The notes under the pieces were generated by a model, which had not been told where the DNA came from, ran no database searches, and saw only the letters and a list, made by a program, of their open reading frames with translations. Shown here piece by piece: positions 13,441 to 23,155 of a stretch of DNA of 28,235 nt (its first letter is position 1; every line of letters begins with the position of its first letter). Origin of the DNA: a virus (Duplodnaviria; Heunggongvirae; Uroviricota; Caudoviricetes); IMG/VR virus record IMGVR_UViG_3300043410_000565, positions 1 to 28,235 of that record. One strand, given 5' to 3'. The translations under genes were made by a program, and so were the position numbers.

Positions 13441-13561
13441 TAGAATCGTTACAGCAATTTTAAATAATCTTTCTGGAAAAAAGAGGGTCTGGGTTCGAAT
13501 CCCAGCGCTGAGTTGGTCTTCAGTGTGGTGTAATGGTAGCACGATAAAAGCGATTCTGTTA
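13441..13561 (+). ncRNA. Y-RNA-like element 1 (permuted tRNA mimic, GGA loop)
   Basis: Stem AGAATCG/CGATTCT plus CAGCAA; interior order anticodon arm, T arm, closed acceptor, D arm. Confidence 0.75.
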
Positions 13562-19397: not shown

Positions 19398-20204
19398 ATG
19401 GCAGTAAAACAGGTTTGTCCTGATGTGGCATTCCCTTCATTTGATCATCTATTCAACCAGTTGAAAGGGTTGAAGTTGTCATTTGATCCAAACTGGCCAA
19501 GTTTACCAACGATGCCATCTCCGATGTTTCCGAACATTAAGATGCCTGAGTGGCAGACTACTAATCTAGCATTTAACATTTCTGTTAATCAAATGCTAAA
19601 GTGGTTTGAGATGATCTTTGCTAAACTGTCGTCATTCTTGGGTTCTGTATTTACTTTTCCAGATATTCCGCATATCAACCTGAAGTTACCAGACCTGTTT
19701 AATTTTAGCGGTGAGACTGATTGGGCTGCGATTTTCGCAAAGATTCCAAGTCTAAAATTACCGTCATTGCCAGATCCGTTGCTTCCAAATATGCATATGC
19801 CTGAGTTTGAGAGTTTAATTAAATTTCAGGCATTGATTTTAAATTACATGTCATCATTGATGGACTCGTTGATTGGGTTGTTACAATCAGTGATCAATAA
19901 ACTGAACATCAAACCTTTCTCATTAGGTTTGTCTATGCCTTCGTTTCCTGATCCATTGTTTCCTTTCGACTTTGAATCGTTAATGTTGAACATGCCTTCG
20001 CTACCGTCGTTGCCAGACCCATTGTTTGGTAACTTTAAAAACCCTTCAATGGAGTGGTTGGAAAGAGGTAAGAATTACTTCCTTCACTTACTTGGGTTGA
20101 TTGGTAAGACGATTGATGATTTTGTGGCATCTATTGCGAATTGGATTGGTGGTTGGACTCCACCATTGATTTGTTTTGGTGTACCTATAACAGTAGAAAC
20201 TTAA
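19398..20204 (+). CDS. Pro/Leu/Phe-rich repeat protein
   Basis: Three repeats of LPSLPDPL(F/L)PN..MPE(W/F); AGGAG SD. Confidence 0.75.
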   Translation: MAVKQVCPDVAFPSFDHLFNQLKGLKLSFDPNWPSLPTMPSPMFPNIKMPEWQTTNLAFNISVNQMLKWFEMIFAKLSSFLGSVFTFPDIPHINLKLPDLFNFSGETDWAAIFAKIPSLKLPSLPDPLLPNMHMPEFESLIKFQALILNYMSSLMDSLIGLLQSVINKLNIKPFSLGLSMPSFPDPLFPFDFESLMLNMPSLPSLPDPLFGNFKNPSMEWLERGKNYFLHLLGLIGKTIDDFVASIANWIGGWTPPLICFGVPITVET

Positions 20205-22028: not shown

Positions 22029-22104
22029 GCTTCTATGGCAGAGTGGCTTATGCGACCGTCTCTAAAACGGGTGAAGGTGGGTTCAAATCCCACTAGGAGC
22101 ACCA
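22029..22104 (+). tRNA. amber suppressor tRNA (anticodon CTA)
   Basis: Full cloverleaf: GCTTCTA/TAGGAGC acceptor, CCGT-CT CTA AA-ACGG, GTGGG-TTCAAAT-CCCAC, A73, CCA. Confidence 0.88.
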
Positions 22105-22124
22105 AACTTTTGAAAGGATATGCA

Positions 22125-22160
22125 ATGGAGAAATTCTCAGCATAGATTCGACCACCGTAA
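22125..22160 (+). promoter_or_regulatory. amber-containing regulatory uORF MEKFSA(TAG)IRPP*
   Basis: GAAAGGA SD; ATG GAG AAA TTC TCA GCA TAG ATT CGA CCA CCG TAA. Confidence 0.6.
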
Positions 22161-22207
22161 GGTTCTTTTGTTTTATATTATGTCTATCAAATTTTAACAA
22201 AGGAATC
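22161..22207 (+). promoter_or_regulatory. SD-sequestering hairpin
   Basis: GGTTCTTTTGTT (22161-22172) pairs with AACAAAGGAATC (22196-22207), 12 bp including 2 G:U. Confidence 0.6.
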
Positions 22208-22211
22208 TATT

Positions 22212-22589
22212 ATGTGTATCGAACTAAAAATTAAATCTAAACATCTTGCTCTTGAGCCTTCTATTATTCGTTGTGAAGAAAGAAAACTCAAGAAGCGTAT
22301 GAAACATAACCGTGATGGCGAAACATCGTATTGGGAACTTGCTAGACAGCGAGATAACCTAATCCTTCATCGTCGTTGGAATGTGAGAAATGAATCTCGT
22401 GCCACTGAGTTGGCTCGTGCATATCTCGCTGGAAAACCTTATTCTCACGTTGAAAAGAAGCGTAAGGATGAGACAATGTTTCAGATGATGATCGTTCCTC
22501 GTATTGTTGCGATGGTTACCAAATATGGGACCAAAGAACAACGATCCGTTGATCGAAAAATTATTCAAGAATGGTCAAAAATCGCTTGA
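22212..22589 (+). CDS. basic hypothetical protein
   Basis: LKIK.K.LA.E..IIR.EE...HR...VR.ESRA..LA.AYL.G.PY..VE; AAGGA SD. Confidence 0.8.
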   Translation: MCIELKIKSKHLALEPSIIRCEERKLKKRMKHNRDGETSYWELARQRDNLILHRRWNVRNESRATELARAYLAGKPYSHVEKKRKDETMFQMMIVPRIVAMVTKYGTKEQRSVDRKIIQEWSKIA

Positions 22590-22614: not shown

Positions 22615-22626
22615 TAATGTATGAAT

Positions 22627-22905
22627 TGGGATGAATACAGCATAGTAAACTACTATGACTAAAGAGTAGCCCACGCACAGGAGGAAACATCGTAAGGTGT
22701 CAATTTTGTGGGCTAGGTTGGAAAGACTATTGCATGCTCTTATGCCTCGTGAACCCTAGTAGGATTCAGATAGTTACACCCGAATGTGTACCAAGTTGCC
22801 GTAACTTGTACGGATATGCCAGTGAACTGGATGATTCTCGTGGGGTTTGCCGAAAGGGACACGATGGTTTAAGTAACTAAAATGATCAACCCGATCATCC
22901 CGTTG
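22627..22905 (+). ncRNA. Y-RNA-like element 8 (long, ~280 nt)
   Basis: Stem GGGATGA/TCATCCC plus CAGCAT and GTTG; internal stems with GNRA loops; own promoter. Confidence 0.7.
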
Positions 22906-22917
22906 TTTAAATTTTAC

Positions 22918-22946
22918 TTGACTTTAATTCAGAAGTCAGGTATAAT
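22918..22946 (+). promoter_or_regulatory. promoter for element 9 and the TROVE-like gene
   Basis: TTGACT-17 nt-TATAAT. Confidence 0.8.
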
Positions 22947-22959
22947 TGATGTATTGAGT

Positions 22960-23115
22960 AAGGTTAGGTTCAGCAAACCTAAAACTAGGTGGCAAATCTC
23001 CTCGGAGACTGCTACCACTACGCTGGCACGTGGATCTTTGATCCACCCGAAAGGGTTTGTGCGCCAAGAGTTTCGATTTCTCTTGTAAATCAAAAAGTAG
23101 GAAACTAACCTGTTG
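22960..23115 (+). ncRNA. Y-RNA-like element 9 (5' of the TROVE-like gene)
   Basis: Stem AGGTTAG/CTAACCT plus CAGCAA and GTTG; several internal hairpins. Confidence 0.72.
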
Positions 23116-23155
23116 TTTGACTTAGGCTTCGTTGCCTGTAATTGGAGATGTAAAT

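Follow-up and report, generated by a model that had tools for sequence, protein, structure and literature searches.

Based on the comparison of 91 non-redundant loci combined with modelling of ribosome footprints, we propose that a small cassette of a T4-like phage is likely a translational ON-switch, and that what it reads out may be a shortfall of release factor. An amber suppressor tRNA (anticodon CUA) is here followed by a leader reading frame with an in-frame TAG, a Pro-Pro-stop and a predicted stem covering the Shine-Dalgarno (SD) sequence of an orphan gene, here called X. The phage amber tRNA would compete with host RF1 at the leader UAG. Normally RF1 would end the leader there, with some 15 nt left before the stem, leaving X off. 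If the suppressor, which we infer to be charged by a host synthetase, wins, the ribosome would reach the Pro-Pro-stop and pause over the anti-SD strand, freeing the SD of X; stalled ribosomes open SD hairpins in this manner in ermC and secM. The chain from readthrough via the Pro-Pro pause and the opened stem to X expression is in our judgement likely, with charging, pause and switching deduced from an anatomy that is read directly. The element is real and widespread, and apparently undescribed.

The window, i.e. the whole stretch of 28,235 nucleotides that was analysed, corresponds to the initial 28 kb of a genome of 160,850 bp with T4-like gene content (gp32, gp45, gp59, UvsW and related genes), 30 tRNAs and a tmRNA. 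Under code 11 the coding density is 0.914, compared to 0.936 if TAG and 0.928 if TGA is read as sense. TAG terminates 15/209 ORFs, and reading through it adds 0-37 residues. Genome-wide recoding of TAG (code 15) was rejected, since density barely changes, the TAG extensions are this short and the code 11 ORFs are not fragmented. The phage genome uses the standard code, as the initial annotation had held when it remarked on a suppressor in a region that is not recoded. No release factor, RF2 or synthetase was found among 125 proteins scanned, a subset of all ORFs made up of 21 window proteins and, from the rest of the genome, 104 out of 144 listed ORFs. None of the 19 SD-ATG-x(0-9)-TAG sites in the genome is followed by at least 60 open codons, and ARAGORN finds neither tRNA-Tyr nor tRNA-Ala among the 30 genome tRNAs. 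The genome also encodes ribosomal protein S21, Acb1, RNA ligase and ClpP, and its tmRNA is permuted.

The initial annotation had placed the leader 20 nt after the CUA tRNA and an SD-hiding hairpin before X; all of these coordinates hold (Table 1). The tRNA forms a cloverleaf with CUA in a 7-nt loop and an encoded CCA end, as in suppressor tRNAs, and has G1:C72, A73, an A27-G43 mismatch and a short variable arm. Its ARAGORN label, tRNA-Pyl, follows from the anticodon; the body scores as a standard Rfam tRNA, and the 125 scanned proteins, a part of the ORF set, include no synthetase. The leader ATG at 22125 lies 20 nt after this tRNA. An ATG at 22120, previously named as an alternative start in another frame, was rejected, as it lies 1 nt from the SD and is missing from, e.g., L001, L003, L012 and L025. 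The stem comprises 13 bp including G-U pairs. The window's fold alone is only modestly above chance (z -1.94; 1/20 spacer shuffles equalled the real sequence); the main support comes from comparison across loci. Contigs from four freshwater metatranscriptomes, ~93-94% alike, span the leader and X, three of them also the tRNA, which attests presence in RNA libraries only.

Table 1. Coordinates of the cassette in the window and of features in related loci.
Feature	Position	Strand	Basis or remark
Amber suppressor tRNA (anticodon CUA)	22029-22104	+	ARAGORN; Rfam tRNA 57.1 bits
Leader Shine-Dalgarno GAAAGGA	22112-22118	+	6 nt from ATG 22125, 1 nt from ATG 22120
Leader uORF MEKFSA-TAG-IRPP-TAA	22125-22160	+	sequence and comparison
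Putative gating amber codon TAG	22143-22145	+	TAG in 87/88 SD-led leaders
IRPP	22146-22157	+	leader reading
Leader TAA	22158-22160	+	leader reading
Pro-Pro-stop, inferred pause site	22152-22160	+	conserved PP among relatives
Anti-SD strand of stem	22160-22172	+	fold prediction, pairs with 22196-22208
SD strand of stem, AAGGA at 22200-22204	22196-22208	+	fold prediction
Gene X, 125-aa basic all-helical orphan	22212-22589	+	single copy, one HMM match in genome
tmRNA (genome coordinates)	47007-47391
Family Y loci	L202-L259 (e.g. L211, L213, L215 at 2001); L260:1180-1430		in-frame TAG
Loci with promoter in stem, named	L048, L071, L080, L102, L107, L146, L153, L159		sigma-70-like match

Several further features were observed in the tRNA array and beyond X. 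The non-coding region 22620-23130, with two strong promoters (22586, 22918), precedes a DUF2828 gene (a PHROG RNA-binding protein), and RNA-contig depth at ~22680-22860 lies far above the flanks in four runs, a depth that sums other organisms' contigs; Rfam has no match to this region, a candidate abundant ncRNA. A module of a stem and CAGCA is repeated after tRNAs at 13451, 14523, 14716, 18590, 22637 and 22970, in some cases followed by tRNA-like parts. TCAGCAT in the leader resembles this module, but the resemblance was rejected as the explanation, as most homologs do not keep it and its 7-mer class is common. A 268-aa ORF rich in Pro, Leu and Phe (19398-20204), with internal PSLPDP-like repeats and no Pfam match, lies inside the array.

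Conservation of the leader was assessed in loci gathered with the X protein and its alignments, as sets of 26, the best 80 of 124, the best 80 of at least 136 (metagenomes), 20 and 1, together with three named phages. From 182 loci with gene X, 22 were dropped (no start found or <130 nt upstream), although two of these, L062 and L076, do carry the leader, leaving 160 usable and 91 non-redundant loci. The strict pattern, stop-x(0-8)-PP in frame and 35-85 nt upstream of X, is present in 82/91 loci (80 TAG, 2 TGA) and before 3/132 other SD-led genes of the window's genome. When starts were corrected and the distance limits relaxed, a recount to which this control figure does not apply finds an SD-led start, stop and PP in one frame in 88/91 loci (87 TAG, 1 TGA). 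The remainder consists of one TGA locus without a start (NCTB) and of L072 and L150 without PP, L072 also lacking the leader. The uORF, in-frame amber, PP and stem first noticed in a single genome are hence kept in homologs. These loci are phylogenetically related and the tallies were made without a tree of X, so that the counts are not independent events.

The constraints on the leader are those of a translated sequence. Its length before the stop ranges from 1 to 61 codons with the frame always kept, and the stop-to-PP spacing is 2-7 residues (or ~80), again always in frame. Among 12 distinct close variants, 9/12 variable columns are third codon positions, and 14 different Pro-Pro codon pairs occur among the 82 loci. 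TAG is followed by A in 59/82, and PP lies at a median distance of 60 nt from the X start (5-95% range 56-71). Taken together, these patterns indicate that selection acts on the leader frame, the stop codon and PP. Gene X itself ends on TAA or TGA in 91/91 loci and on TAG in 0/91. The use of TAG in 87/88 SD-led leaders thus appears notable and speaks for the proposed gate, given that TAG ends only 15/209 ORFs and no X gene. The sole TGA among these 88 leaders, ML-TGA-VYAPP-TAA in L023, adjoins a UCA tRNA; judging from this exchange, stop identity follows the suppressor anticodon.

Stalling at Pro-stop is known from TnaC. PP is directly followed by a stop in 69/82 loci. The 13 loci without this stop carry RxPP in 8 cases (RGPP, RSPP, RDPP, RAPP), compared to 3/69 with the stop, i.e. 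RxPP is present in 11/82 relatives overall. Because the non-stop variants are mostly RxPP, two known stall types appear to replace each other at the PP position. According to the accessible part of PMC3985003, C-terminal Pro-Pro disfavours release and favours trans-translation, and passages of PMC12992588 describe arrest at RAPP and RGPP, with RSPP and RDPP partly permissive and under-represented, and RGPP, RSPP and RDPP arrest-prone. The initial annotation had likened the window's RPP-stop to RAPP/RGPP-type motifs. A pause at PP-stop stands as the deduction it was; the motif does not, as the window has I-R-P-P-stop and not R-[AG]-P-P followed by sense codons.

Among isolated phages, the cassette is present in three types; it occurs in DSS3_MAL1, BUCT-ZZ01, the Stenotrophomonas phages DLP3, DLP5 and Summit, and the N4-like OLIVR1, as well as in L200. 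In DLP3, DLP5 and Summit the leader reads MK-TAG-VYKPP and the tRNA lies 7 nt downstream of X, and in OLIVR1 a 'tRNA-Val' has a CUA-containing loop. The OLIVR1 label of X, 'putative structural protein', finds no support in the main text of the OLIVR1 paper, and a weak X homolog in T5S1 (E 0.06) has no leader. In L053 and L146 the gate would be the stop of an ordinary gene, as a longer gene upstream of X terminates in ...AIQIFR-TAG and xxFKPP-stop comes next. In L029 (2880-2990) and L266 (NCTB), TGA lies upstream of RGPP with no SD-led start in that frame, an ATG being one base off; by pattern there is no amber tRNA here, and ARAGORN missed a tRNA-like sequence whose loop may contain UCA. Gene-neighbour clustering returned no third gene constant beside the cassette, the best reaching 17/91 loci.

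Opening of the stem was modelled with assumed footprint edges, A-site +12 and P-site +15. With these edges, the median energy required to open the ribosome binding site (RBS) of X across the 82 loci is 10.1 kcal/mol with the ribosome at TAG and 2.5 with the ribosome at PP, in the window 12.0 and 2.2. The RBS is thus modelled as closed in the former state and open in the latter, in agreement with what had been suggested from the window alone. The energy falls by at least 2 kcal/mol in 78/82 loci, a figure to be read against the general effect that masking more sequence lowers the opening energy in any gene, with 25/133 control genes dropping by at least 2. X nonetheless ranks first among the 133 genome genes for loss of RBS occlusion (9.8, next 6.5). 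Spacer shuffling halves the occlusion (median 5.0), and the real spacer exceeds the shuffle mean in 81/82 loci and all 20 shuffles in 46/82. The stem sequence differs between loci with the SD still paired, as read by eye and not as a formal covariation count. A sigma-70-like promoter is matched in 14/82 spacers (1.0 expected), with the -35 box overlapping the anti-SD, and may offer an ungated route past the switch in those loci; the window spacer has no such match.

The suppressor is equally a regular part of the arrangement. In the fetched flank of X, a CUA tRNA is present in 76/91 loci and a UCA tRNA in 1/91, usually ~110 nt upstream. The suppressor is absent from the fetched flank in 14/91 loci, many of them short fragments, and in L077, a 75%-complete contig, none was found by pattern. 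The 79 distinct CUA tRNAs share G1:C72 (77), A73 (64) and the anticodon loop, with varying acceptor bodies, and a Watson-Crick 27:43 pair is present in only 18 of the 79; the accessible part of PMC13092985 describes an E. coli case in which an unpinned 27-43 pair improved UAG readthrough. The suppressor tRNAs of L051, L066 and L186 have an atypical CCCTAAC loop and are misnamed or unnamed by tRNA finders, and the leaders of L066 and L186 end on PP-TAG.

Suppression may serve further genes. Four loci (L077, L117, L156, L167) carry a domain of ~80 residues between TAG and PP-stop, which in L117 is an 81-residue conserved domain without internal ATG. This inserted domain is otherwise found at the N-terminus of the proteins of another family, Y (~185 aa), which has an in-frame TAG at codons 2-5 in 38/40 distinct loci, with no nearby restart in 37. 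A CUA tRNA lies within 2 kb in 24/40, often directly before Y. Family Y has no Pfam, PHROG or Atlas match and is missing from the window's genome. In Rhizobium phage RHph_I1_18, a Y gene with TAG that the annotation lacks adjoins the CUA tRNA. A second leader of this phage, ML-TAG-FKPP-TAA, precedes a different, 127-aa gene (L260:2060-2536), which by eye resembles the N-terminal half of a Y fusion in Atu_ph07 and Phosso; the gated payload hence seems exchangeable. L250 and L258 (1860-2000) show another arrangement: Y is free of TAG, and the CUA tRNA is followed by a leader MT-TAG-V and then a GC stem with a U tract (read by eye), possibly an amber-gated transcription attenuator.

Two jumbo phages, Phosso and Atu_ph07, have an operon that opens with a Pth2 gene and closes with the Y domain. 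In Phosso (L262:72-566), which has two CUA tRNAs, an SD-led MKY-TAG stands in frame upstream of Pth2; in Atu_ph07 (L261:132-581) it is an SD-led MIGEHF-TGA, with a UCA tRNA, a suppressor also noted in the passages of PMC6102473. In both, Pfam PTH2 positions 3-12 follow this stop and precede the annotated Met, and the interval contains neither ATG nor GTG nor TTG. The two phages would thus represent a second match of stop and anticodon, judged by sequence. The only nameable gene found under a matching stop gate is a peptidyl-tRNA hydrolase, a termination-rescue enzyme, a link that rests on two genomes and was reached via family Y, not X. The conserved domains encoded behind in-frame stops in L117, family Y and Pth2 lend indirect support to the view that the suppressor is aminoacylated and decodes UAG.

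The role of X is the weakest step of our explanation. The family is large (2589 representatives at E<=0.001), and the AF2 model (pLDDT 90) predicts a long helical hairpin and a small helical domain. The protein is basic, with invariant or conserved K, H, R and E outside the hypervariable hairpin tip. X has no Pfam, PHROG, PDB-sequence or ESM Atlas match, and 123 members of its alignment returned five single weak matches against Pfam and PHROGs. Fold searches gave a best E of 1.3 (Foldseek on PDB), unnamed relatives only (BFVD) and generic helical hairpins (VIA, best Z 7.9); an RF2 chain at Foldseek rank 17 (E 4.0) was rejected as noise. A GGQ motif is found neither in X nor in its alignments, and no X fusions were seen among proteins of 283-2000 aa, which is weak evidence. 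That free release factor is the quantity sensed, and that X aids termination or rescue, or protects termination, is a plausible if not quite favoured proposal, made because the sole nameable stop-gated gene is a peptidyl-tRNA hydrolase.

The same switch could instead respond to how much phage tRNA is available or charged, as a stage timer, a gauge of tRNA integrity or synthetase capacity, or a co-infection signal, with X in a late or host-takeover function that has nothing to do with termination. We regard this as unlikely, if worth serious attention: the tRNA travels with X (suppressor in 77/91 flanks), and the 79 CUA tRNAs share so little beyond G1:C72, A73 and the anticodon loop that charging may be loose and conditional. 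For recoded phages, the accessible part of Borges et al. (10.1101/2021.08.26.457843) moreover proposes that suppressor tRNAs signal infection stage and co-infection. A timer, however, would need no stop-codon contest, and the stop-gated Pth2 genes point to termination stress. It is improbable that X feeds back positively, inhibiting RF1 or protecting or charging the suppressor, with bistable readthrough as a precursor of the code switch of recoded phages. The basic character of X and its invariant K, H, R and E would be compatible with binding of RNA or a factor, and X and the tRNA are tightly linked, but the genome offers almost nothing to read through, as the 15 TAG-ended ORFs and the 0/19 start sites described above illustrate, and neither RF2 nor a synthetase is among the 125 proteins scanned.

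Two further alternatives concern the leader itself. Readthrough might be needed without a lasting stall, either as the stem is melted by a ribosome that passes and terminates slowly, or as a pause leads to mRNA cleavage and tmRNA tagging, which leaves a 3' fragment without the anti-SD. Pro-stop is a known context of tmRNA tagging in the accessible part of PMC3985003 and the phage encodes a tmRNA; yet PP is kept in 88/91 loci, its distance from the start varies little, and RxPP becomes common where PP is not followed by a stop, all of which argue for the stall and make this alternative decidedly improbable. The spacer could also be kept as a promoter or RNA-processing signal of the tRNA array, with the uORF an RNA motif or by-product and no translational switch at all. 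Promoter-like sites in 14/82 spacers and the frequent A after TAG agree with this, but whole-codon length changes, third-position variation, the variety of Pro-Pro codon pairs, the TGA/UCA swap and the read-through domains speak so strongly for translation, and the window spacer is so plainly without a promoter match, that we give it hardly any weight. Our preferred explanation remains a switch operated by readthrough at the leader stop, which may report a shortage of release factor.

Extending this, we tentatively suggest that many standard-code phages may run a hidden readthrough regulon, in which a private suppressor tRNA probes host release-factor availability. Such a regulon would comprise at least three architectures (PP-stall with anti-SD stem, N-terminal in-frame stop, and leader with terminator), and its interchangeable payloads, i.e. 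X, Y, a third helical protein and Pth2, might restore or replace termination. If true, release factors would be disabled by some host defence or infection state that has so far escaped notice, and the regulon would be an intermediate on the way to complete recoding of a stop codon. The cassette could explain, in a form open to experiment, the retention of suppressor tRNAs by standard-code phages, the switch being ~190 nt long and carried by cultured phages. It points two large orphan families, X and Y, at translation termination, and represents a natural regulatory use of stop-codon suppression that annotation pipelines miss or cut short, as with Y in RHph_I1_18 and the two Pth2 genes, annotated without their first domain residues. 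No description of the element was found in open-licence full text (PMC and bioRxiv, without supplements or subscription journals); the accessible parts of Borges et al. (10.1101/2021.08.26.457843), PMC7162821 and PMC13602936 do not describe it. The element can be compared with several known systems.

Autoregulation of prfB (RF2) relies on an early in-frame UGA and a +1 frameshift, with output rising when release factor is short. The cassette shares with prfB an early stop that competes with a bypass route. The bypass here would, however, be in-frame suppression by a dedicated tRNA rather than a frameshift, at UAG (RF1) and with a separate leader and stem, and X lacks GGQ. A +1 frameshift of the prfB type does not fit, as 88/91 loci have a single reading frame for start, stop and PP; the one ambiguous locus is NCTB, whose TGA has no SD-led start in frame. 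With arrest-peptide attenuators (ermCL, secM and the RAPP/RGPP leaders ApdA, ApdP and ApcA, the latter described in passages of PMC12992588), the cassette shares a short leader, a proline pause site and the predicted opening of an SD stem. In contrast to them, its pause site is gated by an in-frame stop and a co-encoded suppressor tRNA, most copies have PP-stop and not RAPP, there is no evident input from a drug, a metabolite or a pulling force, and it is phage-encoded. Impaired release at a C-terminal Pro-Pro before a stop is likewise shared with Pro-stop stalling and tmRNA tagging (accessible part of PMC3985003), which here apparently serves as the actuator once the readthrough gate has been passed. 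As far as the accessible part of Borges et al. describes them, phages recoded to code 15 or 4 similarly use a suppressor tRNA to express stop-containing phage genes conditionally in a standard-code host, whereas here the genome is not recoded, a single regulatory codon rather than structural or lysis blocks is concerned, and there is no release factor or synthetase module among the 125 proteins scanned. XacN1 (PMC5852040) and Atu_ph07 (PMC6102473), finally, share orphan suppressor tRNAs in standard-code phages. The XacN1 paper states in its accessible part that its authors were unable to identify a target of the suppressor, and none is named in the passages on Atu_ph07, whereas the targets proposed here lie in unannotated leaders and gene starts. 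By analogy, the cassette would thus work like an arrest-peptide attenuator joined to prfB-type logic, distinct from RAPP peptides, prfB frameshifting and recoded phages.
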